Assembly: GCA_965263355.1 (NCBI GenBank)
Contig: CBDHHL010000056.1
Location: 768,001 to 832,000 of the forward strand
Source of the DNA: Leptolyngbyaceae cyanobacterium
GTDB lineage: Bacteria > Cyanobacteriota > Cyanobacteriia > Phormidesmidales > Phormidesmidaceae
Length of the DNA stretch: 64,000 nucleotides
Reading direction: 5' to 3'
A program made the translations under genes and the position numbers. The notes under the pieces were generated by a model that saw only the letters and a program-made list of their open reading frames with translations, had not been told where the DNA came from and made no database searches. Below, piece by piece: positions 37,782 to 59,840 of this stretch (the stretch's first letter is position 1; every line of letters starts with the position of its first letter).

Positions 37782-38615
37782 ATGACTGAGCCTGTACCAG
37801 AACTGATTATCGAAGCCGGTCGTACCGAAGCGCAGTATTGGCAGGATCTTTGGCGATATCGAGAACTGTTTTATTTTTTGGCCTGGCGCGATATCCTGGT
37901 GCGCTACAAACAAACAACAATTGGTATTGCTTGGGCGCTATTACGACCATTTCTGACCATGATTGTATTCACAGTGGTATTTGGGAGATTAGCAAACTTA
38001 CCATCCGAGGGTGGTGCCCCCTATCCAATTTTAGTTTTTGCCGCCATGTTACCCTGGCAGTTTTTTGCCAATGCCCTATCAGAGTGCAGCAATAGTTTAA
38101 TTACCAACGCGAATCTTCTGTCCAAAGTCTACTTCCCTCGGCTAATAGTACCTACAAGTGCCGTTATCGTTAGCTTTGTAGACTTCTTAATTTCGGGAAT
38201 CATTCTGCTTGGGCTCATGGCCTGGTTTAATACAGTGCCTACCTGGCGGATGTTGACCTTGCCTTTTTTTATTGCTATTGCATTTGCAGCAGCCATGGGA
38301 GCCGGTCTGTGGCTAGCCGCATTAAATGTACAATATCGAGACTTTCGTTATATTGTTCCATTTATTGTCCAGTTTGGGCTTTATATCTCACCAGTTGGGT
38401 TTAGCAGTACGATCATTCCAGAAAATTGGCGAATAATCTATGCTCTAAATCCTATGGTTGGGGTGATTGATGGCTTTCGCTGGGCAATTATTGACGGTGA
38501 CGTCCAATTATTTTGGCCAGGGTTTATATGCTCCTTACTAATAGTAGGTGGACTACTCACATCAGGAATCTTGTATTTCCGTCGTATGGAAAGGACTTTT
38601 GCTGATGTCATTTAG
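37782..38615 (+). CDS. wzm: Polysaccharide ABC-2 transporter permease Wzm
   Basis: YRELFYFLAWRDI.VRYKQT..G.AW, L.KVYFPR, YRDFRYI, LNPM. Confidence 0.92.
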   Translation: MTEPVPELIIEAGRTEAQYWQDLWRYRELFYFLAWRDILVRYKQTTIGIAWALLRPFLTMIVFTVVFGRLANLPSEGGAPYPILVFAAMLPWQFFANALSECSNSLITNANLLSKVYFPRLIVPTSAVIVSFVDFLISGIILLGLMAWFNTVPTWRMLTLPFFIAIAFAAAMGAGLWLAALNVQYRDFRYIVPFIVQFGLYISPVGFSSTIIPENWRIIYALNPMVGVIDGFRWAIIDGDVQLFWPGFICSLLIVGGLLTSGILYFRRMERTFADVI

Positions 38616-38632
38616 CTGCAGCTTTTAACCAT

Positions 38633-38870
38633 TCATCAACGGGTTTCCGCCTAACAAAGGGTGCAGTGCGGTCTCCAGATATAGTTTGAGTTTCCTCAAA
38701 GAAAATGAAGCAGTGCGGCATAACTTAAACTGCTCAACTTTTTCCAGACCTTGTGATTGAACTTACCTCAGCAGCGATAGGTTGAGGTGTTGCAGCAAGG
38801 CAAAAAGGGTGCAGTTAGATCTATGCCAAAGCAACTGTTGCTGGATCAACTAATATCAGGCTTTATCTAG
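38633..38870 (+). pseudogene. Uma2 (DUF820) endonuclease remnant between wzm and wzt
   Basis: One frame reads SSTGFRLTKGAVRSPDIV* (38633-38689) and FPDLVIELTS (38741-38770), both hallmark Uma2 motifs, broken by stops. Confidence 0.7.
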
Positions 38871-38987
38871 AACGTGACATCACTAATTTTGAGCCCTGCA
38901 GCGATTTGTCAAAATATGAAAATTTGATGAACCTGATGGGCATTCTTATTTCTTGATGGTCGTTTTCACTCACATGTCTCTACTGTC

Positions 38988-40274
38988 ATGGTCAACACGG
39001 TGATCCAAGTCGAAAACTTGGGCAAAAAATATGTCATTCGACATCAGCAAAAAGGTGCTTACCGTTACAAGGCACTGCGTGATGTTATGGCGGATGGACT
39101 AAAGTCCCTTAGTCAAAAGGTAAGACACCCTGGTAAGTCGTTTAAGCCAGCCAACCAAGAAGATTTCTGGGCACTGAAAAATGTTTCATTTGAGGTTAAG
39201 CAGGGAGAAGTTGTTGGAATTATCGGACGCAATGGAGCTGGGAAGTCTACTTTGCTTAAGATTCTAAGCAGGATCACAGAGCCCACAACGGGTAGAATTC
39301 GTTTGAAAGGCAGGGTTGCCAGCTTATTAGAAGTGGGTACAGGCTTTCATCCAGAATTAACTGGTCGAGAAAACATTTTTCTCAATGGTGCCATTCTGGG
39401 CATGAGCCGGAACGAGATTAATCGTAAATTTGATGAAATTGTTGAATTTGCTGAAACCACTCAATTCTTAGATACCCCAGTCAAACGCTATTCGTCAGGC
39501 ATGTACGTGCGTTTAGCCTTTTCAATTGCAGCACATCTAGAGCCAGAGATTCTTGTCATTGATGAAGTCTTAGCTGTAGGAGATGCTGCATTTCAAAAAA
39601 AATGTCTAGGCAAAATGGAAAGTGTTGCTGGACAAGGGCGCACCATTTTATTTGTCAGTCATAATATGCAAACAATCAGAAATCTCTGTACACGCGGAAT
39701 TCTGATTGAAAAAGGAATGGTGAACTCTGATACCTCAATAGAAGAGTCATTAACTAACTATAATCAAAGCCTTCGAAACCTACGATTCAATGTTTCAACG
39801 GGGGTCAAAGATTCTAGCTCTAGAAGAGGTGAGGGACAAGTAAGATTTACAGAGATTACCCTTTTAGATGATCATGATAATGAAGCTTTTTATTTTTCCA
39901 TGGGAGACAGAATCCGATTCAGACTGTCTTACCAAGTTTTCTCTAATGTCAAAGAATTAGGTCTTCTGATTCGTTTGCGATCAGGAGTAACGGGTGAACC
40001 TATCACTTCAGATTTCCATACTTTATCAACAAGTGAATTAGATTACCAATTTCAAAAAACTATTGTGATTGAATGGGCAACAAGCAATGTTCTGCCTGGT
40101 GAATATCCTCTATATTTCTGGCTTGGAGACTTTCAAACACACCCTTATGATGTTGTGGATGACCTGACACACCCACTAGTGATAACTGCAAATATAGCAG
40201 CTTCATCTAAAGACTTGCATCCGTCCAGTTCGATGGGCGTTTTCGCAGTGGAATCAAATTTGTTATCCAATTGA
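38988..40274 (+). CDS. wzt: Polysaccharide ABC transporter ATPase Wzt with C-terminal carbohydrate-binding domain
   Basis: GRNGAGKST, GFHPELTGREN, YSSGM, IDEVLAVGD, VSH; ~150-aa C-terminal Wzt_C-like extension. Confidence 0.92.
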   Translation: MVNTVIQVENLGKKYVIRHQQKGAYRYKALRDVMADGLKSLSQKVRHPGKSFKPANQEDFWALKNVSFEVKQGEVVGIIGRNGAGKSTLLKILSRITEPTTGRIRLKGRVASLLEVGTGFHPELTGRENIFLNGAILGMSRNEINRKFDEIVEFAETTQFLDTPVKRYSSGMYVRLAFSIAAHLEPEILVIDEVLAVGDAAFQKKCLGKMESVAGQGRTILFVSHNMQTIRNLCTRGILIEKGMVNSDTSIEESLTNYNQSLRNLRFNVSTGVKDSSSRRGEGQVRFTEITLLDDHDNEAFYFSMGDRIRFRLSYQVFSNVKELGLLIRLRSGVTGEPITSDFHTLSTSELDYQFQKTIVIEWATSNVLPGEYPLYFWLGDFQTHPYDVVDDLTHPLVITANIAASSKDLHPSSSMGVFAVESNLLSN

Positions 40275-40327
40275 TCGCTGTGCCTCATCTTCAGATTATT
40301 GGATAATGTTTATCGTGGGACGCGCTT

Positions 40328-41344
40328 ATGATTATTAGCCAAGATATATCTATTTTAGTAACTGGAGGCACTGGCTCTTTTGGCAAAGAATTTGTGAGAA
40401 GAATTTTAGATAAGTTCCCAAAGATTAGACGACTGGTTATTTATTCGAGAGATGAACTAAAACAGTTTGAGATGGCACAACAATTCTCTACCAGCGACCA
40501 TCCAGGCTTACGTTATTTTATTGGTGATGTCCGCGATCATCAACGACTGACTCGGGCATTTGAACAAATTGATGTTGTCGTACATGCTGCTGCTTTAAAA
40601 CAAGTTCCGGCAGCTGAATATAATCCTATGGAATTTGTCAAAACCAATGTCCTAGGAGCAGAAAATATTATTCAGGCGGCTCTGGATACCCAAGTCAAAA
40701 AGGTAGTAGCTTTGTCGACTGATAAAGCAGCAGCTCCAATTAATCTTTATGGTGCGACGAAACTTTGCTCAGACAAGCTTTTTATTGCAGCAAATAATAT
40801 TAAAGGACGCCGAGAACTGAGTTTCAGCGTTGTACGATATGGCAATGTCATGGGTTCAAGAGGATCAGTCATTCCCTTCTTCATAAAAAAACGCAAGGAT
40901 GGCGTTATCCCCATTACTAATCCACAAATGACTCGCTTCAACATATCTCTACAAGAAGGGATCGATATGGTTCTTTGGGCAATCGAGAAATCTTTGGGAG
41001 GAGAAATTTTAGTTCCCAGGATTCCCTCTTATCGAATTATTGATGTAGCCAAAGCTATTGCGCCTAATTGTAAGCATAAAATTGTAGGTATTCGTCCCGG
41101 AGAAAAAATCCATGAAGAGATGATTACCAGCTCAGATTCATATACAACTGTTGATCTTGGGTCCTATTACGCAATTTTACCCACTCAAGCAAGTTACAGT
41201 GTTGAGAGATATTGTGAAGTTATGGATGCAATACCTGTGGAACAAGGATTCAGCTACAATTCCGGTCAAAATGATCGATTTCTTACAGTTGAAGAGCTAC
41301 GGGCACTTACCAAAATTCACATCGATCCAGACTTCACTATCTAG
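40328..41344 (+). CDS. pseB: UDP-GlcNAc 4,6-dehydratase (inverting)
   Basis: TGGTGSFG, YSRDELKQ, HAAALKQVPAAEYNP, STDKAAAPINLYGATK, RYGNVMGSRGSV. Confidence 0.93.
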   Translation: MIISQDISILVTGGTGSFGKEFVRRILDKFPKIRRLVIYSRDELKQFEMAQQFSTSDHPGLRYFIGDVRDHQRLTRAFEQIDVVVHAAALKQVPAAEYNPMEFVKTNVLGAENIIQAALDTQVKKVVALSTDKAAAPINLYGATKLCSDKLFIAANNIKGRRELSFSVVRYGNVMGSRGSVIPFFIKKRKDGVIPITNPQMTRFNISLQEGIDMVLWAIEKSLGGEILVPRIPSYRIIDVAKAIAPNCKHKIVGIRPGEKIHEEMITSSDSYTTVDLGSYYAILPTQASYSVERYCEVMDAIPVEQGFSYNSGQNDRFLTVEELRALTKIHIDPDFTI

Positions 41345-41348
41345 AGCT

Positions 41349-42518
41349 ATGGGTGACTACATTCCTTATGGAAAGCAAGATATTACGCAACAAGATATTG
41401 ATTCTGTTGTCGCCGTCCTTAAATCAGACTGGCTGACCCAAGGACCTTTAATAGCTCAATTCGAACAGGCTATTGCAAATTACTGTGGGGCAAAATATGC
41501 TGTAGCTGTATCTAGCGCAACAGCAGCTTTACATATTGCTTGCATCGCTGCCGGATTATCCTCCGGAGACAGTTTATGGACTTCTCCAAATACGTTTGTC
41601 GCATCAGCTAATTGTGGCCTTTATTGCGGGGCAACTGTCGATTTTATTGATATCAATCCAAGAACTTATAATTTAAGCTTGGACAACCTCAAGACAAAAC
41701 TAGAACAATCAGCAAAACATGGGTATCAATTACCAAAAATATTAATACCAGTACATTTTGCGGGGCAATCCTGTGAAATGGAAGAAATTAGAGAGCTATC
41801 TCACTGCTATGGATTCCAGGTAATTGAAGATGCCTCTCACGCGATTGGTGGACAATATAAAGAAAAAGCTATTGGTAGCTGTTTCTTTTCAGATATGACA
41901 GTGTTTAGCTTTCATCCCGTAAAGATTATTACTACTGGCGAAGGTGGAATAGTAGTGACAAACCGTTCGGATTTATATGAGAAGTTAGTACGACTACGAA
42001 CTCATGGTGTGACGAAAGATTCAAACTTATTTCAGACTGAATCCCATGGACCTTGGTATTATCAACAACTTGAGTTGGGCTACAATTATCGTATCACTGA
42101 TATTCAATCCGCATTGGGGCTTAGTCAACTTAAACGGCTTGATGAGTTTTTAAAGCGCCGAAGGTGGTTAACTGCTCGATACAATAACTTTTTGAGAGAA
42201 CTGCCATTGACTTTACCCTGGCAGCATACAGATACAAACTCTAGTTGGCACCTATATGTAGTAAGACTGCAATTAAAGAAAATCAATAAAACTCACCGAC
42301 AAATATTTGAAGCACTTCGACAGCAAAATATTGGCGTGAATTTACATTATATTCCAGTACATATCCAGCCTTACTATCAGAACTTAGGATTTAACTGGGG
42401 AGATTTTCCCAATGCAGAACAGTACTATCGAGAGGCTATTAGTTTACCGCTGTACTATGGGTTAACTGAAAATGCCCAGGACAGAGTTATCCAAACCCTA
42501 TCTCAGATTTTGAAATAA
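41349..42518 (+). CDS. pseC: UDP-4-amino-4,6-dideoxy-AltNAc aminotransferase
   Basis: IPYGKQ.I...DI, LTQGP, SSATAALH, EDASHA, FSFHPVK.ITTGEGG; start at MGDY 41349. Confidence 0.92.
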   Translation: MGDYIPYGKQDITQQDIDSVVAVLKSDWLTQGPLIAQFEQAIANYCGAKYAVAVSSATAALHIACIAAGLSSGDSLWTSPNTFVASANCGLYCGATVDFIDINPRTYNLSLDNLKTKLEQSAKHGYQLPKILIPVHFAGQSCEMEEIRELSHCYGFQVIEDASHAIGGQYKEKAIGSCFFSDMTVFSFHPVKIITTGEGGIVVTNRSDLYEKLVRLRTHGVTKDSNLFQTESHGPWYYQQLELGYNYRITDIQSALGLSQLKRLDEFLKRRRWLTARYNNFLRELPLTLPWQHTDTNSSWHLYVVRLQLKKINKTHRQIFEALRQQNIGVNLHYIPVHIQPYYQNLGFNWGDFPNAEQYYREAISLPLYYGLTENAQDRVIQTLSQILK

Positions 42519-42538
42519 TTGCATACATGCTCCTGTTT

Positions 42539-43231
42539 ATGAAAATAGCAGTCATTCCAGCTCGGGGAGGAAGTAAGCGAATTCCTCGTAAAAACATTAA
42601 ACTCTTCTGTGGTCAACCAATGATATCGTGGTCAATTCAAACCGCCCAGAACACGCACTTGTTTGATCATGTAATTGTTTCTACTGAAGATTCTGAAATT
42701 TCCGAGGTGGCTAAAAGTTTGGGGGCAGAAGTTCCATTTATGCGGCCCCACAATCTTGCTGACGATTATACAGGAACTACAGAAGTTATCGCCCATGCTA
42801 CGCAATGGATGCTTGATCAACGGTGGCCTGTGACAGCTGTTTGCTGTATTTATGCAACAGCACCGTTTATTCAAGTAGATGACATCAAGCAAGGGCTAGA
42901 TTATTTGGAATCAGGTAATTGGGAATATACCTTCTCAGCCACAGAATTTGCAGCACCTATCTTCCGATCATTTCAACAAACTCCAGAAGGAGAAATTAAA
43001 ATGTTTTTTCCAGAATATTTTTTGGTTCGGTCTCAGGACATACCTGTAGCGTTACATGACGCTGGGCAATTTTATTGGGGGCGACCCTCCGCATGGTTAC
43101 GTAGTAAACGTATTTTTGATCAGCATTCGACATGTGTTGTCATCCCGAAATGGCGCGTATGTGATATTGATACTGAAGAAGATTGGAAAAAAGCAGAAAT
43201 TATTGCTCCTGTTATCATGAAAAACATCTAA
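42539..43231 (+). CDS. pseF: Pseudaminic acid cytidylyltransferase
   Basis: IPARGGSKRIPRKNI, CCIYATAPF, RSQD, DAGQFYW, DIDTEEDW. Confidence 0.92.
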   Translation: MKIAVIPARGGSKRIPRKNIKLFCGQPMISWSIQTAQNTHLFDHVIVSTEDSEISEVAKSLGAEVPFMRPHNLADDYTGTTEVIAHATQWMLDQRWPVTAVCCIYATAPFIQVDDIKQGLDYLESGNWEYTFSATEFAAPIFRSFQQTPEGEIKMFFPEYFLVRSQDIPVALHDAGQFYWGRPSAWLRSKRIFDQHSTCVVIPKWRVCDIDTEEDWKKAEIIAPVIMKNI

Positions 43232-43251: not shown

Positions 43252-43875
43252 ATGGGAAATTTCACAACTGAGCAGGAATATTTTTGGGCTGGTGACTTTG
43301 GGAACGATTATGCTGCTAGAAATAGCTCAGACAAGTTGTTTTCCAGTAATATTTCACTGTTTTCTACTATCTTAAAGCACACGCATGATGTGAAATCTGT
43401 CATCGAATTTGGTGCAAATATTGGTCTAAACTTGAATGCAATCAAATATCTTTTACCACAAGTAGAGTTATCTGCAGTTGAAATCAATCAAAAGGCCAGT
43501 AAAAGCTTGCAGGCTAACAATATAAAAACATATGTACAATCTATTTTTAATTTCTCCCCAACTCAAAAATATGATTTTGTCTTAACCAAAGGGTTATTAA
43601 TTCATGTTAACCCAGAACAACTTCCTAAAATTTACCAAACCATATACAAGGCATGTAAACACTATATCTGTGTAGCCGAATATTATAATCCCACTCCTAT
43701 CGAGAAAACCTACCGCGGGCATGACAACAAGTTGTTTAAACGTGATTTTGCAGGAGACTTGTTAGATCAATTTAGTGACTTAAAGTTGTTAGATTATGGT
43801 TTTGTCTATCATCGAGACAATCATTTTCCACAAGATGACATAACTTGGTTCGTACTTGAAAAATCACTACCCTAA
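43252..43875 (+). CDS. Pseudaminic-acid-biosynthesis-associated SAM methyltransferase
   Basis: TEQE.FW.G.FG..Y..RN, EFGANIG.N, GLLIH.NP, EYYNP.P...YRGH..KLFKRDFAG. Confidence 0.88.
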   Translation: MGNFTTEQEYFWAGDFGNDYAARNSSDKLFSSNISLFSTILKHTHDVKSVIEFGANIGLNLNAIKYLLPQVELSAVEINQKASKSLQANNIKTYVQSIFNFSPTQKYDFVLTKGLLIHVNPEQLPKIYQTIYKACKHYICVAEYYNPTPIEKTYRGHDNKLFKRDFAGDLLDQFSDLKLLDYGFVYHRDNHFPQDDITWFVLEKSLP

Positions 43876-45368
43876 TGAAAATACTTATTCGAGCGGATGC
43901 TTCTTCTGAAATTGGGACTGGACATGTTATGCGTTGCATGGCCTTAGCTCAAGCATGGATCGAGCAAGGAGGGGGGGTAACTTTCCTAATGGTTCCTGGT
44001 ATTACCGCTTTGGAAACAAGGTTAAGAGCTGAGGGTATCCAGGTTGTGCATATGCCGTTCTTCTCAGGGAGCCAAGAAGATGTGCATCAAACCATTGTCC
44101 ATGCTAATTCTTTGAATATTACTTGGGTAGTGGTGGATGGCTATCAGTTTGGTGCTGACTATCAACAAGTAATTAAAAATGCTGGTCTGAAACTATTGTT
44201 GATGGATGATTATGGTCATGCAAAATACTATTGGGCAGATCTAGTACTCAATCAAAATATTTATGCTCATGAGCGTATTTATGCTAATCGAGACGCTTGT
44301 ACACAACTACTACTAGGAACTTCTTATGCATTGTTGAGGAAGGAGTTTTGGCCATGGCGAGACTGGTCTCGCAGGGTTCCAGCCGTAGCTTGCAAAATAT
44401 TAGTAACCTTAGGGGGAAGTGACCCCGATAACGTTACCCTCAATGTGATTCAAGCTTTGCTACAGGTTAAGGTTGATGGCTTGGAGGTGATAGTTGTTGT
44501 TGGGAGTGGTAATCCCCACTACGAGCAGTTGCAAAAATCTATTCAAGGCACTGAAATAGCAATTACACTGAAACACAATGTGAGCAATATGCCTGAGTTG
44601 ATGGCTTGGGCAGATTTAGCAGTTACGGCTGGAGGGAGCACCTGCTGGGAAATTGCGTTTATGGGATTGCCAAGCTTGGTAATCGTTTTGGCAGAGAATC
44701 AATGTGCGATCGCAGAGAAATTAGAGGCTATTGGTGCTGTAATAAACTTAGGGTGGCATACTAAATTGTCGCCTAATATGTGTCAGCTAGAAATTAATAG
44801 ACTAGCTAAAAATATAGATTTGCGAAGAGAGATTAGTCAGCACAATCGACAGCTGGTTGATGGAGAAGGTAGTGACAGAATACTTATGCATCTTCGACAT
44901 CAGAGACTACGCCTCAGGAATGTACATGAAGATGACTGTGAACTTCTTTGGCGATGGGCAAATGATTTGAGTGTCAGAAAAGCTGCATTCAAATCTGATT
45001 TCATTCCTTGGCAGGAACATTTACAGTGGTTCTATCTCAAGCTTCAAGACTCGAGTTGCTGCATTTATATCGCACTTGACAGACAGGATAATGCTGTTGG
45101 CCAAATACGATTCGATATTTATAATAGTCAACGTGCAGAAATAGATATTAGTCTTGATAAAAGCAAACGAGGGTTGGGCTATGGAGCTGAATTAATTAAG
45201 TTAGGTATTAATAGTTTTTTAGCTTATGCATCTGTACAAGCTGTTTATGCATCGATAAAAAAAAATAACCACCCATCAATTAGAGCCTTTGAAAAGGCTG
45301 GCTTTCAAAAAGACGATACCCAAAAGCATTTCCATGAGAAAGCTGTAATATATGTTTTTGAAGTTTAA
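43875..45368 (+). CDS. pseG: PseG UDP-sugar hydrolase fused to PseH-like GNAT acetyltransferase
   Basis: IRADAS..IGTGHVMRC, VVDGY, LGGSD, AGGST.WE, ENQ; C-terminal GNAT domain (W.N...VR, GQIRFD, RGLGYG, N..S.RAFEKAGF). Confidence 0.88.
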   Translation: MKILIRADASSEIGTGHVMRCMALAQAWIEQGGGVTFLMVPGITALETRLRAEGIQVVHMPFFSGSQEDVHQTIVHANSLNITWVVVDGYQFGADYQQVIKNAGLKLLLMDDYGHAKYYWADLVLNQNIYAHERIYANRDACTQLLLGTSYALLRKEFWPWRDWSRRVPAVACKILVTLGGSDPDNVTLNVIQALLQVKVDGLEVIVVVGSGNPHYEQLQKSIQGTEIAITLKHNVSNMPELMAWADLAVTAGGSTCWEIAFMGLPSLVIVLAENQCAIAEKLEAIGAVINLGWHTKLSPNMCQLEINRLAKNIDLRREISQHNRQLVDGEGSDRILMHLRHQRLRLRNVHEDDCELLWRWANDLSVRKAAFKSDFIPWQEHLQWFYLKLQDSSCCIYIALDRQDNAVGQIRFDIYNSQRAEIDISLDKSKRGLGYGAELIKLGINSFLAYASVQAVYASIKKNNHPSIRAFEKAGFQKDDTQKHFHEKAVIYVFEV

Positions 45369-45624: not shown

Positions 45625-46320
45625 ATGAATTCTCAGTATATTGTGGTGGGAAGTAAATCTTGGAATCGAAAAGTGTTTGACCAGTGTCTGGTTGACCAGT
45701 CGGGGAGATGGACTTTTATTGATTCCCATGAAGCTCTAAATTTGGCCAAAATAGATAAAATTAAGCCTCGCTATATTTTTTTTCTCCACTGGTCTTGGAA
45801 AGTATCTAATGAGTTACTTGATAAATATGAATGTGTTTGCTTCCATATGACAGATGTTCCGTATGGAAGAGGAGGTAGTCCACTTCAGAATTTAATTGTT
45901 AGAGGACATAAAATCACCAAAATGACGGCTCTAAGAATGACACAAGAGCTTGATGGAGGTCCAGTGTACTATAAAGAGCCACTTTACTTAGGAGGGAATG
46001 CAGAGGAAATCTATATTCGTGCGAGTTATCTCTCTGCCAAGATAATAAAAAGGATTATTAAGGAACAACCGAACCCAATAGCTCAAACAGGAAAGATAAC
46101 CATCTTTAAGCGAAGACAACCTGACGAAAGTGAAATTTTAGGCATTGAATCACTTGATAGTTTGTATGATCATATACGAATGCTTGACGCAGAAGGCTAT
46201 CCCAAATCTTTTATCCAATATCAAGGCTTTCGATATGAGTTTAGTCGAGCAGTTTTGTATGATGGGCAAATTAAAGCCGATGTCACAATTACCCCTTTAG
46301 AAGAAGGAGATCCTGACTAA
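45625..46320 (+). CDS. Formyltransferase (methionyl-tRNA formyltransferase-like), putative sugar N-formyltransferase
   Basis: FHMTDVPYGRGGSPLQNLI..G, ELDGGP, IRMLDA.GYP. Confidence 0.8.
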   Translation: MNSQYIVVGSKSWNRKVFDQCLVDQSGRWTFIDSHEALNLAKIDKIKPRYIFFLHWSWKVSNELLDKYECVCFHMTDVPYGRGGSPLQNLIVRGHKITKMTALRMTQELDGGPVYYKEPLYLGGNAEEIYIRASYLSAKIIKRIIKEQPNPIAQTGKITIFKRRQPDESEILGIESLDSLYDHIRMLDAEGYPKSFIQYQGFRYEFSRAVLYDGQIKADVTITPLEEGDPD

Positions 46321-47003
46321 TGAATGTGTTAGTTGTTGCCGCCCATCCAGATGATGAAGTTTTAGGCTGTGGCGCGACTATTGCAAAACATACTCAGCAA
46401 GGTGACTCTGTCTATATATTAATTCTTGCAGAAGGTGTTACTAGTCGAGGTGAGCAGCATAATCGTAAGATGTGGCATTCAGAGCTTTCTGCGGTAACGA
46501 AAGCTGCTCAACGGGCAAGTGAAATTTTGGGTGCTACTTCTGTAGCTCTCAAAGGATTTCCAGATAATCGGATGGATGGATGTGAACTACTTGACATAAT
46601 CAAAATAGTGGAAGAGAGCATTTCTAAATATCAACCAGAAGTTATTTATACCCACCATATTGGTGATGTAAATATTGATCATCAATATACTCATAGAGCA
46701 GTTGTAACGGCGTGTCGACCGGTGCCACACCATCCAGTCAAAACATTATTATTTTTTGAAGTTCCATCTAGTACTGAGTGGCAACCACCAGGTTCGTCTT
46801 CAAGTTTTGTTCCTAATTGGTATGTAGACATTGGAAGAACGCTAGAACTGAAATGTCAAGCACTAGCAGCTTATGCTGCTGAGATGCGACAGTGGCCTCA
46901 TCCTAGATCTATAGAAGCTGTCAACTATCTTGCAAAATGGCGAGGTTGTTGTGTGGGCATAGAAGCTGCTGAAGCCTTCATTTTAGGAAGACATCTAAGC
47001 TAA
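46320..47003 (+). CDS. PIG-L/LmbE family N-deacetylase
   Basis: AAHPDDEVLG.G metal motif; TH...D.N.DH; EAF; TAATG overlap with the formyltransferase. Confidence 0.9.
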   Translation: MNVLVVAAHPDDEVLGCGATIAKHTQQGDSVYILILAEGVTSRGEQHNRKMWHSELSAVTKAAQRASEILGATSVALKGFPDNRMDGCELLDIIKIVEESISKYQPEVIYTHHIGDVNIDHQYTHRAVVTACRPVPHHPVKTLLFFEVPSSTEWQPPGSSSSFVPNWYVDIGRTLELKCQALAAYAAEMRQWPHPRSIEAVNYLAKWRGCCVGIEAAEAFILGRHLS

Positions 47004-51983: not shown

Positions 51984-53181
51984 ACCACTAAATGTTTTAA
52001 TGGCTCACAATTATTATCAAAATAGTGGTGGGGAAGATGTTTCCATGGCTGCTGAAATAGAAGTTTTACAGCAAGCAGGCCATCAAGTAAAGCTATTGGA
52101 ATGGAGAAATGACAGTATTACAGCGATGAACAAGTTTGAGAAACTTGGTCTCTTTTGGAAAACGACTTGGAATATAGGTTCCAAGAGACGCGTTTATCAA
52201 ACACTCAAAAGTTTTAATGCTGATTTATTCCATGGACAAAACCTGTTTCCATTAGCGTCTCCTTCTGTATATCAGGCGGCACGTCGATTAGAAGTACCTG
52301 TAATTCAGCATTTGCGTAATTTTCGCTTAGCGTGCTTAAATGCCTACTTATATCGTCAGGATCAGGTTTGTGAGGATTGTGTTGGTCATAATCCCTGGCG
52401 TGGAGTAATAAGACGTTGTTATCGTGGTTCTTTGCCAGCTTCGATCAGCTTATGGCAAATGTTAACAATTCACCGTTGGCGTCAAACTTGGCGACAAGAT
52501 GTGGATGTGTTTATTACGCCTAGTCGTTTTGCAGCCATTAAGTTGATAGAAGTTGGTGTTCCGGAATATAAGCTTCATGTAAAACCTAACTTTATTGCTG
52601 ATCCGATATCTCCTGGAGGGGATATTCCTCCTCATCCCGAAACACCAGTTTTTATTTTTGCAGGTCGATTATCGGATGAAAAAGGTATTTTATCTCTTTT
52701 GAAAGCTTGGTGGTTAGTACAACAACCTGATTGGCAGTTAATGATTTTGGGAGATGGGCCAGAACGTTTAAAACTCACACAATTTTGCCAGGAGAAAGAG
52801 TTGAAGAATGTCTCTTTTCCAGGTCGATTATCTAATCACCAGGTTTTGGTAAGATTTCAGCATGCAAGTCTGATTTTGGTTCCTTCCTTATGGTACGAGA
52901 CTTTTGGAAGAGTTGTTGTAGAAGCCTTTGCCTGTGGCAGAGCTGCAATGGTCTCTGATTTAGGGGCTTTAGCCGAACTTGTTGATGAGGATGTTACTGG
53001 CTGTAAGGTCCCACCCGGAGATATACAAGCTTGGGCAGAGCGTATTCGATGGTGTGGTAATCATTTAATGGAACTTAAAAAATGGGGGCAAGCTGCAAGA
53101 AATATCTATAAGAAATTATTTACTCCTGAGGTAAATTACAAGCAACTTATGAGGATTTATGCTGAGGCGCTAGATGGGTAG
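51976..53181 (+). CDS. GT4 family glycosyltransferase
   Basis: HNYYQ..GGED, GRLS.EKG, PSLWYETFGRVVVEAFA. Confidence 0.88.
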   Translation: MTKPLNVLMAHNYYQNSGGEDVSMAAEIEVLQQAGHQVKLLEWRNDSITAMNKFEKLGLFWKTTWNIGSKRRVYQTLKSFNADLFHGQNLFPLASPSVYQAARRLEVPVIQHLRNFRLACLNAYLYRQDQVCEDCVGHNPWRGVIRRCYRGSLPASISLWQMLTIHRWRQTWRQDVDVFITPSRFAAIKLIEVGVPEYKLHVKPNFIADPISPGGDIPPHPETPVFIFAGRLSDEKGILSLLKAWWLVQQPDWQLMILGDGPERLKLTQFCQEKELKNVSFPGRLSNHQVLVRFQHASLILVPSLWYETFGRVVVEAFACGRAAMVSDLGALAELVDEDVTGCKVPPGDIQAWAERIRWCGNHLMELKKWGQAARNIYKKLFTPEVNYKQLMRIYAEALDG

Positions 53182-53210: not shown

Positions 53211-53999
53211 ATGGGTATGCATCAACAAGTTTCAATTTTAGGCACTCGGGTTAATGGAACTAGCTATAGAGATGCCTGCGATCGCATCACAACCTGGGCC
53301 AGGGCTCAACATTCCTGCTATATCGTTGCCGCCAATGTCCATGTGGTGATGACGGCCTACTGGAACCGTGCTTACCGCCGAATTCTCAACCATGCAGCCC
53401 TGGTCACACCGGACGGCATGCCTTTGGTTTGGGGATTGCGATGGTTAGGGATTACCCATCAGTCTCGAGTGTACGGCCCTGATCTGATGCTGGCCTGGTG
53501 CGATCGCGCCGCTAAAGAAGGTTTACCCATTTACCTTTATGGCGGTACCGATGGGATGTTGCAGCATCTGGTTCAGAACCTGCAGCAGCAGATTCCAAAT
53601 CTGATCATTGCAGGCACCCATGCCCCCCCCTTTAGACCCTTAACCCCAGCCGAAGAGGTTGCTGATATTAAGACGATTCATCAATCTGGGGCGGCGGTAG
53701 TGTTTGTGGGGTTAGGCTGCCCTAAGCAGGAACAATGGATGGCTCGCCAGCAGGGCAAACTCAATGCCGTGATGCTTGGTGTAGGAGCAGCCTTTAGTTT
53801 TCATAGCGGTAGCGTTTCCCAGGCACCTCGTTGGATGATGGCATGGGGACTGGAGTGGGCCTATCGCCTGTGCCAGGAGCCACGTCGTCTGTGGCGGCGC
53901 TATGTGCTAAACAATACGGCATTTCTCCTATTATTTGGACTGCAGTTAATGAATCGAGCAATGCGGTCTATCCTAAGGCCAGGGCATTCTTCCAGTTGA
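53211..53999 (+). CDS. WecG/TagA/CpsF (GT26) glycosyltransferase
   Basis: ANVH, TPDGMP, RVYGPDL, GLGCPKQE.W, GVGAAF, GLEW.YRL..EP.RLW.RY. Confidence 0.92.
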   Translation: MGMHQQVSILGTRVNGTSYRDACDRITTWARAQHSCYIVAANVHVVMTAYWNRAYRRILNHAALVTPDGMPLVWGLRWLGITHQSRVYGPDLMLAWCDRAAKEGLPIYLYGGTDGMLQHLVQNLQQQIPNLIIAGTHAPPFRPLTPAEEVADIKTIHQSGAAVVFVGLGCPKQEQWMARQQGKLNAVMLGVGAAFSFHSGSVSQAPRWMMAWGLEWAYRLCQEPRRLWRRYVLNNTAFLLLFGLQLMNRAMRSILRPGHSSS

Positions 54000-54002: not shown

Positions 54003-55463
54003 ATGAAAGAGCCGTCTTCCCCCAAACCAGGCCACAGACAGAGTTTTCTGTGGGGTATCGGTGCAGATATTCGCGCTGTGCGTGGAATCAGCCCACGGCG
54101 ACGCTGGGGTAGTGTCAGAGTTATAAGCCTGTTATTAAGTGATGCCCTGGCCCTGGGGTTAGCCTGGCAGCTAGCCCGGTTTCTAAATCAGTTTTACTCT
54201 CCAATTCCTGAACAGTTGGTGTGGTGGGTATGGCTGGGGCTACCCAGTTTATTTTGGCTATTTGCAGGGGTGACTCTGCTGTTATTTACCCACTTTGGTC
54301 TTTACGGTGCCACGGTTCGAGCAAAGGATTATTTACGAGCGGCGCAGTTAGTGAGCTGTGTTTACTTTATATCGCTAGTACTAGCTTATTTTTACGATCC
54401 AAAACTAGATGCTCCCCGGTCGCTTTTTTTTAGTGCCTGGGTAGGTAGTGTGGTGTTAGTCATGGTTACCCGGTTATGGACCAATGGATTACTCTCCTAT
54501 CTGCGAGGGACTGACTTGCCATCGCGGGTTTTTCTGATTACTAACCCAAACCGTATGCACCATTTATCGAAGACTTTGGAACAGCGATCTCACTATCAGG
54601 TGGTTGGCGCTGCTATGGTGGCAACGGCTAATACAGATATCACCTTTCAGCAGATTTTAGCTGCCAAACCCGATGAGGTGCTAGCGGAAGATGTGCCTGA
54701 TATAGAACTGGCTTCGGGGCTGTACTGGCGATTGCGTAGTGCCAAGATTCCTCTACGGTTGCTGCCATCAAGTCGGGAAATGCTTTACCGGCGTGGGATT
54801 CCGGAGGTGGTGGCTGGTTTGCCAACGTTAATGATTGAAACCTCGATTTTTCAGACTTTGGACTATCGACTCAAGCGCTGGCTAGATTATGGTTTGGCGG
54901 CTGTGGCTGTGCTGATACTTAGTCCGGTGTTTGTGGGAATTGCGATCGCTATCCGCCTCGCCTCGCCCGGCCCTGTCTTTTTTCGGCAGGATCGCATGGG
55001 TCTGAAAGGTAAAGTGTTTAAGGTCTGGAAATTTCGCACCATGGCAGTGGATGCCCCCCAGCGTCAGGCCCAGCTGGAGCAGCAAAACCAAACGGCGGAT
55101 GGCATTATGTTTAAGCTCCAGCATGATCCACGGATTACCCCTATAGGTAAGTTTCTGCGACGTACGAGTCTGGATGAGTTACCCCAACTGTTTAACATAT
55201 TGCTAGGGCAGATGAGTCTGGTGGGTCCCCGTCCCTTGCCGCTGCGAGACGTGGCTCAATTTGAACCCTGGCATCATATTCGTCACCAGGTTTTACCTGG
55301 AATTACTGGACTATGGCAAGTATCAGGTCGGTCTGATATTGAAACCTTTGACGATGCTGCCCGATTAGATTTGCACTATATCGACAACTGGTCTCTTAAC
55401 TTAGATTTAGAAATTATGGTGGCAACACTGCGCATTGTTTTGACTGGGCTGGGTGCCTATTAA
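54003..55463 (+). CDS. Initiating polyprenyl-phosphate phosphoglycosyltransferase (WcaJ/WbaP-like)
   Basis: N-terminal TM helices; KR..D, FK..KFRTM, DPRIT.IG.FLRRTSLDELPQL.N.L.G.MSLVGPRP, PGITGLWQV. Confidence 0.92.
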   Translation: MKEPSSPKPGHRQSFLWGIGADIRAVRGISPRRRWGSVRVISLLLSDALALGLAWQLARFLNQFYSPIPEQLVWWVWLGLPSLFWLFAGVTLLLFTHFGLYGATVRAKDYLRAAQLVSCVYFISLVLAYFYDPKLDAPRSLFFSAWVGSVVLVMVTRLWTNGLLSYLRGTDLPSRVFLITNPNRMHHLSKTLEQRSHYQVVGAAMVATANTDITFQQILAAKPDEVLAEDVPDIELASGLYWRLRSAKIPLRLLPSSREMLYRRGIPEVVAGLPTLMIETSIFQTLDYRLKRWLDYGLAAVAVLILSPVFVGIAIAIRLASPGPVFFRQDRMGLKGKVFKVWKFRTMAVDAPQRQAQLEQQNQTADGIMFKLQHDPRITPIGKFLRRTSLDELPQLFNILLGQMSLVGPRPLPLRDVAQFEPWHHIRHQVLPGITGLWQVSGRSDIETFDDAARLDLHYIDNWSLNLDLEIMVATLRIVLTGLGAY

Positions 55464-55472
55464 AAATGAGAT

Positions 55473-58043
55473 ATGTCTACTTCATCACCAGAATCACGCC
55501 CATTGCTACAGGCCTTAACTCAAACAGCAGATGGTCCTTTAATCGGGCTACTAACAATTTGCTTTTACATCCTATTTACCCTGCTCCCCAGTAGCCATTC
55601 GCTAATGGTGTCATGGCCATGGGTGGCAGTGTGGCAGGTGGCGTTGGTATTACCGATCATTTGGCTGTTGTGGCAGCTATGGTTTAAGCCTCTGAGTCAG
55701 TTTAAGCTGGGTTCAGGGTTAGACTGGCCTATTGCCCTGTTAGTCATAGGGTTAGGGATTTCTACAATTTTTGCCGAATTTCCTAACCAGGCCCGGTGGT
55801 ACTCATGGGCTGCTTTAGGGGGGATTGCTGCGCTCTATGCGTTGTCTGGTTGGCTCAAGACACCTCAACAGGCGATGCAATTGCTTAAGTTCCAGGCAGG
55901 TCTGGGGATTGCGTTTATTTTAGTCAGTCTCTATCTTTGGTTATTTCAGACCTATTTCCCAGAACTGGAAAGGTTGGCCGCATTGGAACCCTATGGCGTT
56001 GCCCAACAGTTTAATTTTGGTGTGACTAGCTTGCGGAACTGGTATCCGTTGGGACACCAAAACTATGTGGCCGGTTATCTGGTTTTGATTTTGCCTGTGC
56101 TGTTTGGGTTAGCTATTCATGACCGTGGCTGGCAGCGTCTGCTATGGGGTGTTGGCTGTTGTTTAGGACTGGTGGATCTATATACTGCTAGTTCTCGGGG
56201 TGGGTTGTTGGCTCTGATGGTGACGGTTGCGATCGCCCTTATAATTGTTCTCTTTTGTAGTCAGTTACCCCGACGGTTTGTGTTGCCCGCTGGTGGCTTG
56301 CTGCTATGTCTTTTAATTGCGACTACCTTGGGTAATAGTCGGGTCCGACGACCTTTATTAGCCCTCTTACAAGGTAAGACAAACAATAGTGAATTAGGAT
56401 ATCGAGCCATTACTAATGTCATTGGCTGGCGCATTGGTTTGGACCATCCTTTGACTGGAGCAGGGCCTGGTAGTGTTTTACAGCTGTTTCAAAAATATCG
56501 TCCCTACTGGGCTGGTCGTGAAGCTGAGTTACATTTTCAATTGCACAGTACTCCAGCCCAGCTATGGGCAGAACTGGGGTTATGGGGAATAACTTCATTG
56601 ATAGCCTGTATCGGTCTTCTAGGATGGTTAACGTGGCGTTGGGCCAATTATACAGATGCTAAGCCTTTTATAAATCGTGTTCTTGTTTGGAGTTTAATAG
56701 GCAGTCTTTTTGCCTATGGCCTCATGGGTCTAACCGATTATCAGTTAGATACCCTTCCCATTAGTGGAGTAATCATAGTAGACCTGGCTATTTTAGCTAA
56801 GGTGTATCGAGCCGCTCACCCACAAGACAAAACAAATGAGCCATCCCAAGGGTTCTCATCGCGTTTTTGGGTGGCACTGGTCATCGGTTTACTGCTAACG
56901 GTTAATCTTTGGTTAATTCCCGTTCATCGAGCCTGGGCCTGGTCTAAGCAGGGATTAAACCAACTCAATCGCGGCAACTTTGACGGGTTTGAAAATGCGT
57001 TAACCCAGGCTCATCGATTAGCCCCCTGGGAACCCTATTATCCATTCATACTTGCTTGGATGCTGGGAGATTTGAGCTATCGAACCACCGGAGACTCTAG
57101 CCAAGCGCTCAGAGCTGCTGCGATTGAATGGTTTGAGCGCGCCAATCTTGTTGCACCTTATCAAGAATTTGGTCAATCTAACCTGGGTTGGTTATTACTT
57201 GATACTCAACCAGATAAAGCCGTTGTTGCTTTTACAAATGCAGCTAAACTTATCCCTGCCAAGCAGGGAGTCTTCTTTGGACTGGGGCGTGCCCTATTAG
57301 CCAATGGGCAATCACAACTAGCTACAGATGCATTTGTTTTAGAAAGTCTAAGATTCCCCATGGTGATAACCAGCCCCATTTGGCAGATTAGTGAGTTAGC
57401 TACCGCGAGAGAGGAGGTATTTAGTCAGTTAGAACGATATTATTCTAACTTTTTGACAATGACCGACAATACGCAGCTGAGTAAGCATTGGCAGCAAATG
57501 CGCGGCACACTGTACTGGTGGCAAGGCAACTATAAAGCCGCTGCAAACGACTGGCAGGAGTTTCCTTCAGGACAAGTTCTCTTACAACTGTCATCTCAGC
57601 AAAGTACCTTAACAGCCAAAACGTTGCCAGAAAAAATTATCGGGCAAAAGGCAATTCTTGCCTGGCTTTTGCCTCAACAACGGGCCTCTTTACTAGAACG
57701 TGGTTCAATCAAATCAAAAAATCAGTTACCACAGTACAATTCAGCATTACCTTCACCAGAAGTGATTGAGCAATTTGTTGCCACTATGGAACAAGCTACA
57801 AGCTTTGATGATTGGCTTAAAAACAGCACGTTAATTTCCCAACCCCGCAGTCAACGCCTTGGGTTTGGTACCCTCAATCGTCATATTGACGGTCCTTTTC
57901 CCTCAGATTACTACACTCGTATTATCAATCGACCAGTATCGCAATTTTTTGGGGCAATGTTACCATCTCCATCTTGGTTTACAGAGTTGGATGTCAGTCT
58001 TGAACCCTACAGAGAGGAACTGCTCGAAAAAGTCTCTTCCTAG
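55473..58043 (+). CDS. O-antigen ligase / O-oligosaccharyltransferase family protein with C-terminal TPR-like region
   Basis: About 12 TM helices; HQNY.AG, SSRGG, HPL.G.GPG, HST..Q..AELG ligase motifs; TPR-like helices (LAPWEPYY, SNLGWL, FGLG.AL). Confidence 0.8.
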   Translation: MSTSSPESRPLLQALTQTADGPLIGLLTICFYILFTLLPSSHSLMVSWPWVAVWQVALVLPIIWLLWQLWFKPLSQFKLGSGLDWPIALLVIGLGISTIFAEFPNQARWYSWAALGGIAALYALSGWLKTPQQAMQLLKFQAGLGIAFILVSLYLWLFQTYFPELERLAALEPYGVAQQFNFGVTSLRNWYPLGHQNYVAGYLVLILPVLFGLAIHDRGWQRLLWGVGCCLGLVDLYTASSRGGLLALMVTVAIALIIVLFCSQLPRRFVLPAGGLLLCLLIATTLGNSRVRRPLLALLQGKTNNSELGYRAITNVIGWRIGLDHPLTGAGPGSVLQLFQKYRPYWAGREAELHFQLHSTPAQLWAELGLWGITSLIACIGLLGWLTWRWANYTDAKPFINRVLVWSLIGSLFAYGLMGLTDYQLDTLPISGVIIVDLAILAKVYRAAHPQDKTNEPSQGFSSRFWVALVIGLLLTVNLWLIPVHRAWAWSKQGLNQLNRGNFDGFENALTQAHRLAPWEPYYPFILAWMLGDLSYRTTGDSSQALRAAAIEWFERANLVAPYQEFGQSNLGWLLLDTQPDKAVVAFTNAAKLIPAKQGVFFGLGRALLANGQSQLATDAFVLESLRFPMVITSPIWQISELATAREEVFSQLERYYSNFLTMTDNTQLSKHWQQMRGTLYWWQGNYKAAANDWQEFPSGQVLLQLSSQQSTLTAKTLPEKIIGQKAILAWLLPQQRASLLERGSIKSKNQLPQYNSALPSPEVIEQFVATMEQATSFDDWLKNSTLISQPRSQRLGFGTLNRHIDGPFPSDYYTRIINRPVSQFFGAMLPSPSWFTELDVSLEPYREELLEKVSS

Positions 58044-58078
58044 TTTAGAGGTCTGATTAATTTAAGATTTCTAAAATC

Positions 58079-58861
58079 TTACTCGTTTGGGTTATAGCGA
58101 ACGGTTACTTGGCCATTTTCGGCAACTAAGACCTTTCCTCCCAATGCCTCAATTTGGGCAATGGCTTCTTGCCGAACATTATCGTCAATGGCTCTGGATA
58201 AAACGTTCATCCAACCATTGATAACAGCAGGTTTACTATTAGGGTCAGTCGCTAAGAAATTAGCCGTACGTTGAGATAACTTAGCAACTAGTGGCGCTTC
58301 TGAATCAGATGATTGCTGTGCCCAATCTGCAGCAGTTTGAAATGAAGCTTGGGCCGCTGAATTATCACCAACAAACAACAGTTGATCCGTGCCCTTGTAT
58401 CGCCAGACAAAATAAGACCTAGCGGGTAAATCAGGCGACATCGTCCTCAACCCTTTATCCATCAGAGAAATGGCTGTTTGAGGCTGGCCAGCATATACAG
58501 ACACCGCATTTGTTAAATATAGGTAGGCACTCATAAAGTATGGATCGCGCTCAACAATGACCTCAAAAAACTTGGGGCTCAGGCCATAACCAACAAAATC
58601 TCGTGAATCAAAATCGCCAAAGTACTGCAAAAACCTTAAAAACACCCAGCTACTTAAAAGATTATTAAAGCCAAAGGCAGGTGTAGCGGATATAAATTGC
58701 AGGTTTGTTTCGGCTAATTGGTTTTGTTGAATAGCTGTGTCCAACGTACTATTATCTGGCATTGACAAAACATGCAAACGCTGGTTCTGCAACAGACCAA
58801 TAGTTGCGAACAAACTCAAGGTCAGCAGTGTTCTTAATAAGAAGGATACGGATACGCTCAT
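58079..58861 (-). CDS. Pilin-adjacent membrane-anchored hypothetical protein (TPR-like)
   Basis: N-terminal TM; FGF.NL...W.FL.FLQYFGD..R...GY, DPYF..AY; co-oriented downstream of the pilin. Confidence 0.7.
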   Translation of the reverse strand: MSVSVSFLLRTLLTLSLFATIGLLQNQRLHVLSMPDNSTLDTAIQQNQLAETNLQFISATPAFGFNNLLSSWVFLRFLQYFGDFDSRDFVGYGLSPKFFEVIVERDPYFMSAYLYLTNAVSVYAGQPQTAISLMDKGLRTMSPDLPARSYFVWRYKGTDQLLFVGDNSAAQASFQTAADWAQQSSDSEAPLVAKLSQRTANFLATDPNSKPAVINGWMNVLSRAIDDNVRQEAIAQIEALGGKVLVAENGQVTVRYNPNE

Positions 58862-59095
58862 ACTTGTTCAGCTATATATGTCGAAATTTGTATATTCAAT
58901 AGCTTCTACCCTAGTTGATGGTAGCCCTACACGTCGGGTCGGAAGCCCAACGTAAGTTTAATCAAGCTGCCCCTAAGCCTCTACGAGAATACATCTCTTA
59001 AAGAAAGAGGGGGACTAAAATCATACTTAAAAATTCAACGTTAGTGAGCCAAATACTCTTAGCTAAATTTTGTCAGCAGGCTTCAATTTGCCAAT

Positions 59096-59129
59096 ATAAA
59101 ACCGGGGGCAAACAATGCTGCCCCCGGTT
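59096..59129 (-). terminator. Intrinsic terminator of the pilin gene
   Basis: On the minus strand, aaccgggggca-gcattgtt-tgcccccggtt followed by ttat; perfect 11-bp stem. Confidence 0.8.
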
Positions 59130-59222
59130 ATTCAGCTAAAATCTTCTGAAATTGTAAGAATCCATTAACTTAGAGTATGAACTCCAGTTAACTTCTCAAA
59201 AATCAGTCAATTTAGACAAATT

Positions 59223-59840
59223 CTATTGAGGCTCATAGCCGGTACCACACTCAATGTCAGCTGCATTTGTTGCTATGCCACTAGGCTGAATGGTAGAGTC
59301 ATCTGCTGTCGTATTAGTCTTGATACTCTCACATAGCTGGGTTGTTGAAGTCACCTCATCGCTTTCTGAATCTTGCAGTAAGTAAGTTATACCGGTGTAA
59401 GATTTTAAGTTGAGAAGTTTCTCAGCCGTAGGGTTTGCAATAACAATCCCACCGCTAGTGAAGGCACTTGCATCACCATCAGCAATATTATTGCTTGCAT
59501 CGATACCCCATAGGTCGCCGATTGTAGCGTCAGTTCCTTGACCCAGCAAATAGTTCTCAGAAGCAAGTTTGACACCGATACCAAGACCACCAATGGACTG
59601 AGAGAATTCAGCTTCCTCAAGTACATAGGCCTGCTGACCACGGTTAATGGCACCGACGTTGGTAACAGCTTCAGTTTGGCGGGCTCGGTTGGCCTGGTTA
59701 AGGAAAGAAGGTAGAGCAATAGCAGCCAGGATGCCGATAATGATAATTACTACCAGCAGCTCAATTAGGGTAAAACCCTCGTTGGACTTTTTCTTGCTAA
59801 TTAGATGCTGCAGTAGCTTTGCACGTAGAGTAGTCTTCAT
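59223..59840 (-). CDS. pilA: Type IV pilin (probable major pilin)
   Basis: Basic leader then G|FTLIELLVVIIIIGILAAIALP prepilin peptidase motif; C-terminal Cys pair; AAGGAG RBS and its own terminator. Confidence 0.9.
   Translation of the reverse strand: MKTTLRAKLLQHLISKKKSNEGFTLIELLVVIIIIGILAAIALPSFLNQANRARQTEAVTNVGAINRGQQAYVLEEAEFSQSIGGLGIGVKLASENYLLGQGTDATIGDLWGIDASNNIADGDASAFTSGGIVIANPTAEKLLNLKSYTGITYLLQDSESDEVTSTTQLCESIKTNTTADDSTIQPSGIATNAADIECGTGYEPQ

Follow-up and report, generated by a model that had tools for sequence, protein, structure and literature searches.

Which molecule receives the glycan when a polysaccharide-type gene cluster ends in an O-antigen ligase-like gene and runs head-on into a type IV pilin gene? 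The question is raised by a stretch of 64,000 nucleotides of contig CBDHHL010000056.1 (the window), whose positions 37,782-59,840 hold both the cluster and the pilin. Our analysis of sequences and structural models suggests that the ligase represents an uncharacterised class of O-oligosaccharyltransferase (OTase) acting in en-bloc protein O-glycosylation, with the neighbouring pilin as an acceptor, possibly among other exported proteins. We consider this rather probable. A more specific version is to be entertained as a serious possibility rather than an expectation. The ligase family, called here after Sll0737 of Synechocystis, would be a fifth class of O-linking OTases (WaaL fold, periplasmic tetratricopeptide repeats (TPR), Sll1696-type partner) acting on the type IV pilins of cyanobacteria. 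The host's order would use it in place of the GT41 enzymes, its glycan would come from an exchangeable cassette (here for formyl/methyl-pseudaminic acid), and Sll0737 would be the missing PilA1 enzyme of Synechocystis PCC 6803.

The ligase and its neighbours

Seventeen co-oriented genes (37782-58043, + strand) converge on an accessory gene and a type IV pilin gene on the - strand, according to the listing of open reading frames (ORFs) and the family scans. The scans applied Pfam and NCBIfam cut-offs to 24 ORFs of 31.5-61.6 kb and to 24 of the 27 ORFs of 1-30 kb. All genes named in the original prediction were found in place, the PseH domain with a score below its cut-off. Also as predicted, no Wzx, Wzy-type or Wzz family was matched in the 48 scanned window ORFs. 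The convergent end of the locus is composed of the following genes:

53211-53999, +, WecG/TagA glycosyltransferase (GT26), conserved core (PF03808, TIGR00696; 79-88% identity in close relatives)
54003-55463, +, initiating polyprenyl phosphoglycosyltransferase (PGT; Bac_transf, WcaJ/WbaP type), conserved core (TIGR03025, 385 bits, over cut-off)
55473-58043, +, 856-aa Wzy_C ligase with a weak TPR match, clade A of the Sll0737 family, candidate OTase
58079-58861, -, pilin accessory gene, Sll1696-like by homology and position
59223-59840, -, type IV pilin, candidate acceptor (PF16734, Pilin_GH; PF07963, N_methyl)

Since the ligase and pilin genes are convergent with the accessory gene in between, the two are not co-transcribed. 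The pilin has a mature chain of 183 aa with 32 Ser/Thr residues. Over 258 aa, the accessory protein shares 32% identity with WP_028947484 of Synechocystis PCC 6714, which belongs to the cluster of D082_34760; that gene follows two pilin genes in PCC 6714, the position of sll1696, as reported in PMC5386190.

Fold, motifs and family of the ligase

In an AlphaFold model based on a 27-row alignment (mean predicted local distance difference test score 83), residues 16-447 of the ligase aligned to WaaL (7TPG) with a Z score of 21.2 and a root-mean-square deviation of 4.8 over 372 aa at 15% identity, and residues ~480-650 matched TPRs. WaaL was the only solved fold that matched the membrane domain. 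Eleven transmembrane (TM) helices were indicated by hydropathy and two more by the model, giving ~13; with the N-terminus inside, the TPR domain and the loops carrying R188, R311, H358, and D422 would be periplasmic. Complex prediction for the TPR domain and the accessory protein gave a score of 0.00, which was used neither for nor against the proposal.

Classification by hidden Markov models (HMMs), which the original prediction suggested for telling WaaL from PglL/TfpO, yielded Wzy_C and neither the PglL nor the RfaL models. No NCBIfam model, RfaL included, matched the ligase at 0.001, and IctB (TIGR00947; cut-off 366 bits, NPNL motif) did not match it either. Searching the PDB with its sequence retrieved mainly TPR proteins and no ligase, and tblastn against plasmids gave no match.

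The catalytic residues were compared with those of PglL by spacing, using the numbering of PMC3643930 and 27 ligase rows, which is not an alignment to PglL. PglL residues R224, R298, H349, P313, G316, G318, and N180 have counterparts at matching spacing. In the 27 rows R242, R311, H358, G329, and N197 are invariant, G331 is nearly so, and P326 is in the consensus. H195 stands at the position of the PglL-specific Q178, and the loop after TM11 carries an invariant D422-Y423-Q424, whose mapping to the PglL-specific H400, E404, and P406 is uncertain. Because the Arg/Arg/His set and the Pro-x-x-Gly-x-Gly spacing are as in PglL and WaaL, the ligase looks catalytically intact. The GHQNY motif at 194-198 fits the GH[HPQ]N[FY] pattern of cyanobacterial Wzy/WaaL group 2.

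The closest named homologues come from Adonisia/Leptothoe-type cyanobacteria (65-85% identity). Loci and genomes of the comparison sets are referred to by L and G numbers, respectively; the L001 ligase, 69% identical to that of the window, corresponds by coordinates to Lepto7375DRAFT_5739. A quick tree (60 rows, first 520 residues) separated clade A with the window ligase, a paralogous clade B (26-37% identity), and a distant clade C. The clade B gene is usually found between the PGT gene and clade A (L001:7449-9989, L003:7297-9879, L164:11000-13558). It is missing from the window locus; the sets B only, B+B, and A+B+B also occur among the genomes. A division of labour with clade B as polymerase and clade A as ligase was considered and is weakened by B+B and A-only loci that share the same ABC cassette. 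Clade C proteins, seen in the metagenome loci L183-L262, have 670-850 aa and are encoded in a ligase-PGT operon next to xseA and to glycosyltransferase and methyltransferase genes, mostly on high-GC contigs; one member is named Verrucomicrobiota.

Linkage of ligase and pilin across genomes

Two samples were surveyed, 91 genomes of the host's order and 151 genomes of the phylum. In the order, the ligase family was present in 71/91 genomes, the accessory gene in 82/91, and both in 70/91. Of these 70, 40 had a ligase copy no more than 5 kb from the accessory gene: clade A in convergent orientation in 21, clade B convergent in 8, and clade B divergent in 11. Clade A thus adjoins the accessory gene in 21/70 genomes, and four of these (G166, G199, G223, and G236) have no clade B match. 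As the linked genomes are related, the counts stand for few events and not for 40. The clade B divergent type was read in Nodosilinea nodulosa (L164), a rearranged case where a third ligase copy, of clade B, is situated between the accessory gene and the pilin gene, ~110 bp upstream of the latter and co-oriented with it, apart from the wecG-PGT-B-A cluster. Ligase and pilin were also found close together beyond the host's order, in L037, L042, and L115/L116. Of the best 80 of 271 GTDB loci, many of them cut by contig ends, 40 contained the PGT, 18 the accessory gene and 17 the pilin. In the phylum sample, the ligase was near a pilin locus only in G001, G068, and G072.

GT41 is the family of the known cyanobacterial pilin glycosylation enzyme (PMC9306852). 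It was detected in 3/91 genomes of the host's order versus 67/151 of the phylum, and GT41 genes adjoin pilin or accessory genes in L168-L170 and L175. The ligase and GT41 do not strictly exclude each other in the phylum sample, as 8/12 ligase genomes carry GT41. Both candidate routes meet at one locus of G072 (L117:9890-18996), where the ligase gene and two FkbM methyltransferase genes run head-on into a GT41 gene and a pilin gene.

The Synechocystis connection

According to Pereira 2015 (PMC4594306), sll0737 (861 aa) is grouped with Lepto7375DRAFT_5739, the L001 ligase, in Wzy/WaaL group 2, which also lists the L060/L164 ligases. To judge from this grouping, Sll0737 is the Synechocystis relative of the window ligase. 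Published mutants connect Wzm and the accessory locus with PilA1 glycosylation. Loss of the Wzm-type slr0977 was reported to shift PilA from ~22 to ~17 kDa, with unchanged lipopolysaccharide (LPS) and less exopolysaccharide (EPS) (PMC7885315). Disruption of pilA2-sll1696 leaves PilA1 unglycosylated, and the authors suggest that Sll1696 is the needed part (PMC8546353). Deletion of sll0737 had no reported phenotype in growth, released polysaccharides (RPS) or capsular polysaccharides (CPS), for which the authors blame redundancy (PMC6562117). The window Wzm is likened to Slr0977 by its Wzm type, not by sequence comparison.

PilA1 O-glycosylation in Synechocystis is known to depend on a Wzm-type transporter and on the pilA2-sll1696 locus, and the accessible parts of that literature do not name the transferase. 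The window locus unites a flippase, an initiating transferase, a ligase, the accessory gene and a pilin, which nominates Sll0737 for this role; a segregated deletion strain exists.

The original prediction held that no such system was described in cyanobacteria. This is too broad, as pilin glycosylation has been described there (GT41 Ogt; Wzm- and sll1696-dependent); its narrower part stands, since we found no description of an en-bloc transferase. In the mostly open-access literature covered, no account was found of the Sll0737 family as an OTase, of a cyanobacterial OTase or of a pilin carrying pseudaminic acid (Pse).

Comparison with described systems

PglL/PglS of Neisseria and Acinetobacter resemble the window ligase in the Wzy_C domain, the Arg-Arg-His set and the Pro/Gly motif at the same spacing, and an internal sequon would be expected here as well. 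A C-terminal TPR has been reported for PglL (PMC2943079), and PglL genes often stand beside a pilin gene (21/31 in PMC3643930). The window ligase differs by the missing PglL_A/Wzy_C_2 match, by His at the Q178 position, by its length of 856 aa, and by ending its own glycan cluster, which PglL genes reportedly do not.

TfpO genes lie directly downstream of pilA and are co-oriented with it. The window ligase gene departs from this placement, being convergent with the accessory gene in between. TfpO (PilO)/TfpM are pilin-linked Wzy_C enzymes, and the glycan of P. aeruginosa 1244, Pse7Fo5(3RHb), resembles the formyl-Pse predicted here. The acceptor pilin of TfpO/TfpM ends in Ser/Thr (PMC9829042), whereas the window pilin has no terminal Ser/Thr, the ligase bears a large TPR domain, and the glycan would be flipped by an ABC transporter. 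The TfpO-type terminal-serine mechanism was rejected in view of the C-terminus of the pilin and of 29 related pilins. By the features compared, the ligase is of neither the TfpO nor the PglL type to which the original prediction likened it: the PglL HMMs are unmatched, a terminal Ser/Thr is lacking, and P. aeruginosa 1244 serves as an analogy only.

The nearest gene layout is that of the S-layer systems WsaP/WsaB/Wzm/Wzt of Geobacillus stearothermophilus and WsfP/WsfB of Paenibacillus alvei, with a WbaP-type PGT, Wzm/Wzt, a Wzy_C+TPR protein and a low-GC cluster. Wzy_C plus TPR, Wzm/Wzt and a WbaP-type PGT make up the predicted S-layer OTase layout, and WsfB has a C-terminal TPR (PMC2943079). 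These systems differ in their Gram-positive S-layer acceptor and in having no Pse, and the likeness seen is one of layout. By analogy, the window ligase would work like PglL/PglS and be built like the Wsa/Wsf systems, but it falls outside both PglL and TfpO by the features given above.

Three further systems share single traits. Members of Wzy/WaaL group 2 (Pereira 2015) have the GH[HPQ]N[FY] pattern and ~860 aa, but in the accessible portion of that source they are putative Wzy/WaaL proteins only, with neither a pilin link nor an OTase role. Ogt/OgtA (GT41; S. elongatus, Nostoc punctiforme) is encoded beside pilA and modifies pilin, but is a cytoplasmic, sequential GlcNAc transferase and was found in the 3/91 genomes of the order mentioned above. 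WaaL (7TPG) agrees in the fold of the membrane domain (Z 21.2, 372 residues), but is ~400 aa long and has no TPR, whereas the window ligase adds one predicted TM helix and a ~370-aa TPR-bearing C-terminal domain.

Alternative roles of the ligase

The case for transfer to the pilin is built on synteny, both conserved and rearranged, on the near-absence of GT41 from the order, on the TPR architecture and on the Synechocystis mutants. Several findings weigh against it. On the protein side, the window ligase gave no match to PglL_A (PF15864) or Wzy_C_2 (PF11846) at E up to 10, and it and three relatives yield Wzy_C only. The pilin ends in ...EPQ without a terminal Ser/Thr, and only 1/29 related pilins ends in Ser. 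Sll0737 was placed by a published tree and protein length, not by sequence alignment. As to gene neighbourhoods, the window's arrangement is convergent, and a single ancestral arrangement may underlie most of the 40 linked genomes. The Nodosilinea rearrangement is probably one event, and one of clade B, which is absent from the window locus. In 30/70 genomes, many of them with split contigs, the accessory gene has no ligase copy within 5 kb. In the phylum sample, the ligase family was found in 12/151 genomes versus a strong accessory-gene match in 63/151, ligase and pilin locus were within ~12 kb in 2/11 ligase genomes besides G001, and the GT41 gene is also present in the 8/12 ligase genomes given above. 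Clade C has an adjacent PGT in 51/80 metagenome loci and a prepilin motif in 1/80. Because clade C keeps the PGT and not the pilin, the initiating transferase is, to judge from gene neighbourhoods, the deepest conserved partner of the ligase, and the pilin link mainly a feature of the host's order.

The first alternative is a ligase for LPS or another glycolipid, in which case the cassette would build a Pse-capped O-antigen that varies among strains, and the pilin would be a neighbour by inheritance. The Wzm of S. elongatus is said to be required for O-antigen, which counts for this alternative, as do WaaL being the sole solved fold that matches the membrane domain, the low-GC and exchangeable nature of the cassette, and the retention of the PGT, not the pilin, by clade C. 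The Wzt module together with a capping ulosonate transferase, the pattern of ABC-type LPS O-antigens in PMC12887879, is a further point against the pilin as acceptor. On the side of the pilin as acceptor, a separate IctB ligase-like gene was found in 4/5 relatives and other short Wzy_C proteins in 5/5. In G002 (the genome of L003) from Leptothoe kymatousa, a species with the same Pse cassette, no gene scored above the IctB cut-off; its assembly may be incomplete, and the finding again favours LPS over the pilin. IctB is described as nearly universal, yet G002 has none over cut-off. Against an LPS role stand the size and architecture of WaaL 7TPG (~400 aa, no TPR), the lack of an RfaL match, and the patchy distribution of the family (12/151 genomes). 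Pereira 2015 gives just two Wzy/WaaL entries for S. elongatus, of 435 and 467 aa, and Synechocystis LPS was reported unchanged after slr0977 loss. The Nodosilinea copy directly in front of the pilin also argues against it, and we regard this alternative as unlikely.

It is likewise improbable that the ligase is a general protein OTase for S-layer or other surface proteins, the pilin being no substrate or being served only by the clade B paralogue. In its favour, the nearest layout is the S-layer WsaB/WsfB system as reported, Acinetobacter has both pilin-specific and general OTases (PMC9829042), clade C lacks the pilin link, and the copy in front of the Nodosilinea pilin is of clade B. This is opposed by clade A adjoining the accessory gene in 21/70 genomes, including the four without a clade B match, and by the cassette pairing with A or B alike.

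Wzm/Wzt systems need no Wzy polymerase, which counts against the last alternative. That the ligase is a Wzy-like polymerase or anchor for EPS, as the sll0737 annotation implies, is very improbable: it would agree with the filing under Wzy/WaaL group 2 (PMC4594306), with Wzx in several cassettes and with the lower released polysaccharide reported after slr0977 loss, but Pfam/NCBIfam scans found no Wzz, Wzc or Wza at the locus, and the sll0737 deletion is reported without an RPS or CPS phenotype, owing to redundancy according to the authors.

The exchangeable sugar and flippase cassette

The rest of the co-oriented run, with its left flank, is composed as follows:

35625-37658, +, GHL10 glycoside-hydrolase-like gene (PF02638, 1.5e-31), conserved left flank of the cassette, also in L006, L132, L263, and L267
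37782-38615, +, wzm, ABC permease (PF01061)
38988-40274, +, wzt, ABC ATPase with C-terminal carbohydrate-binding module (PF00005 and PF14524, Wzt_C)
40328-41344, +, pseB (TIGR03589, 514 bits, cut-off 408)
41349-42518, +, pseC (TIGR03588, 558 bits, cut-off 424)
42527-43231, +, pseF (TIGR03584, 306 bits, cut-off 206)
43255-43875, +, Pse-associated methylase (TIGR03587, 272 bits, cut-off 112)
43875-45368, +, pseG with a fused PseH-like GNAT domain (TIGR03590, over cut-off at 241 bits; TIGR03585, 39.7 bits versus cut-off 93.1)
45625-46320, +, sugar N-formyltransferase-like gene (PF21553, PF00551; PDB 1ZGH, 1e-59)
46320-47003, +, PIG-L family de-N-acetylase (PF02585, 2.5e-27)
47052-48110, +, pseI, pseudaminic acid synthase (TIGR03586, 503 bits, cut-off 340)
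48142-49578, +, KpsS-like gene (PF05159, weak, 22.4 bits, cut-off 20; faint PDB 5FA0/8CSB-F matches, E ~0.05)
49726-50736, +, GT2 glycosyltransferase (PF00535)
50751-51983, +, GT4 glycosyltransferase, WcaL-like below cut-off (Pfam/NCBIfam)
51970-53181, +, second GT4 glycosyltransferase (Pfam)

From wzm to the second GT4 gene the GC content is 0.34-0.44; wecG, PGT and ligase genes are host-like (0.46-0.53). Within the run, wzm is followed by a gap of ~370 bp, and another of ~260 bp precedes the formyltransferase gene. PseB, PseC, PseF, PseG, PseI and the Pse methylase all exceed the NCBIfam cut-offs. The formyltransferase was tried as PseJ and dropped, the PDB search giving 1ZGH, Fmt, ArnA, and HoxX and no PseJ. 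Formyl-Pse in the glycan is plausible from the gene content, the exact acyl groups and the glycan length not being readable from sequence. Precedents are the formyl-Pse of the P. aeruginosa 1244 pilin glycan (PMC11040635) and the Pse-terminated tetrasaccharide of Thermus pili (PMC7203116). According to PMC12887879, KpsS1 (GT118) transfers Pse and is related to WbbB, a capping Kdo transferase. The KpsS-like gene resembles the KpsS1/WbbB group weakly, by the PF05159 match and the faint PDB matches, and it follows pseI also in L132, L263, and L034; its product is likely the CMP-Pse transferase.

The cassettes upstream of wecG were compared by scanning 68/120 listed ORFs. Wzx is the flippase in L001, L006, L013, and L021, a single-chain ABC flippase accompanies pseI and the KpsS-like gene in L034, and Wzm/Wzt occur in the window, L003/L132, and L263. 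Orthologues of the window Wzm were 76-81% identical in G003, G028, and G094, genomes with a pilin-pilin-accessory arrangement, versus only 30% for the best match in G001, a Wzx-cassette genome. L132 has the Pse genes without methylase, formyltransferase and deacetylase; L263 has formyltransferase and deacetylase, with two clade B ligase genes closing its cluster. One and the same Pse cassette goes with clade A alone in the window, with A+B in L003/L132, and with B+B in L263/L264. PseI exceeded its cut-off in 13/91 genomes of the host's order, at the ligase locus by coordinates in one, after the same left flank on a broken contig in L267, and elsewhere in others. In L265 and L266, a wzm-wzt-pse cassette is located apart from the ligase locus.

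As the upstream cassette swaps flippases, Pse is strain-variable. Judged from these comparisons, Pse with the ABC flippase is one variant of a strain-variable, exchangeable cassette, and wecG-PGT-ligase is the conserved unit. The original prediction of en-bloc transfer thus keeps its core, and its Pse/ABC part applies to one cassette variant.

A possible pathway

For en-bloc glycosylation of the pilin, the PGT would prime polyprenyl phosphate with hexose-1-phosphate, and WecG, the two GT4 enzymes and GT2 would extend the glycan on the cytoplasmic side. PseB/C/G/H/I/F with the formyltransferase, deacetylase and methylase could provide a modified CMP-Pse, which the KpsS-like enzyme would add, perhaps as a cap that the Wzt module recognises. 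Wzm/Wzt would flip the lipid-linked glycan, and the ligase would transfer it in the periplasm onto Ser/Thr residues inside the pilin chain, with acceptor recognition presumably aided by the TPR domain and the Sll1696-like protein. The wecG-PGT-ligase core would stay fixed while strains exchange the sugar and flippase cassette, much as at a serotype locus. If this is true, cyanobacteria have two separate pilin glycosylation routes, and pilus glycans may vary among strains with relevance to phage, grazer and host contact. The new OTase class might also find use in glycoengineering.

Other features of the window

A promoter scan of the locus was not better than shuffled sequence. A terminator-like hairpin (12-pair stem, T tail) lies between the pilin and accessory genes, in a scan that overall was not above shuffles:

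59100-59129, -, terminator-like hairpin

About 30 kb upstream, a UDP-GlcNAc 2-epimerase gene (21636-22751, -) could feed UDP-ManNAc to WecG. Two divergent genes for PMT_2 (GT-C) membrane glycosyltransferases are found at 17825-19510 (-) and 19581-21215 (+), preceded by two ORFs of 512-583 aa that had no Pfam match. A protein with a PilB/GspE-like N-terminal domain (MshEN), with a partial T2SSE match only, is encoded at 32827-34035 (+), after a HetZ-related gene. Upstream of the pilin, a CheA-like chemotaxis/phototaxis kinase gene and glcD (61697-64000, -) are kept in relatives.

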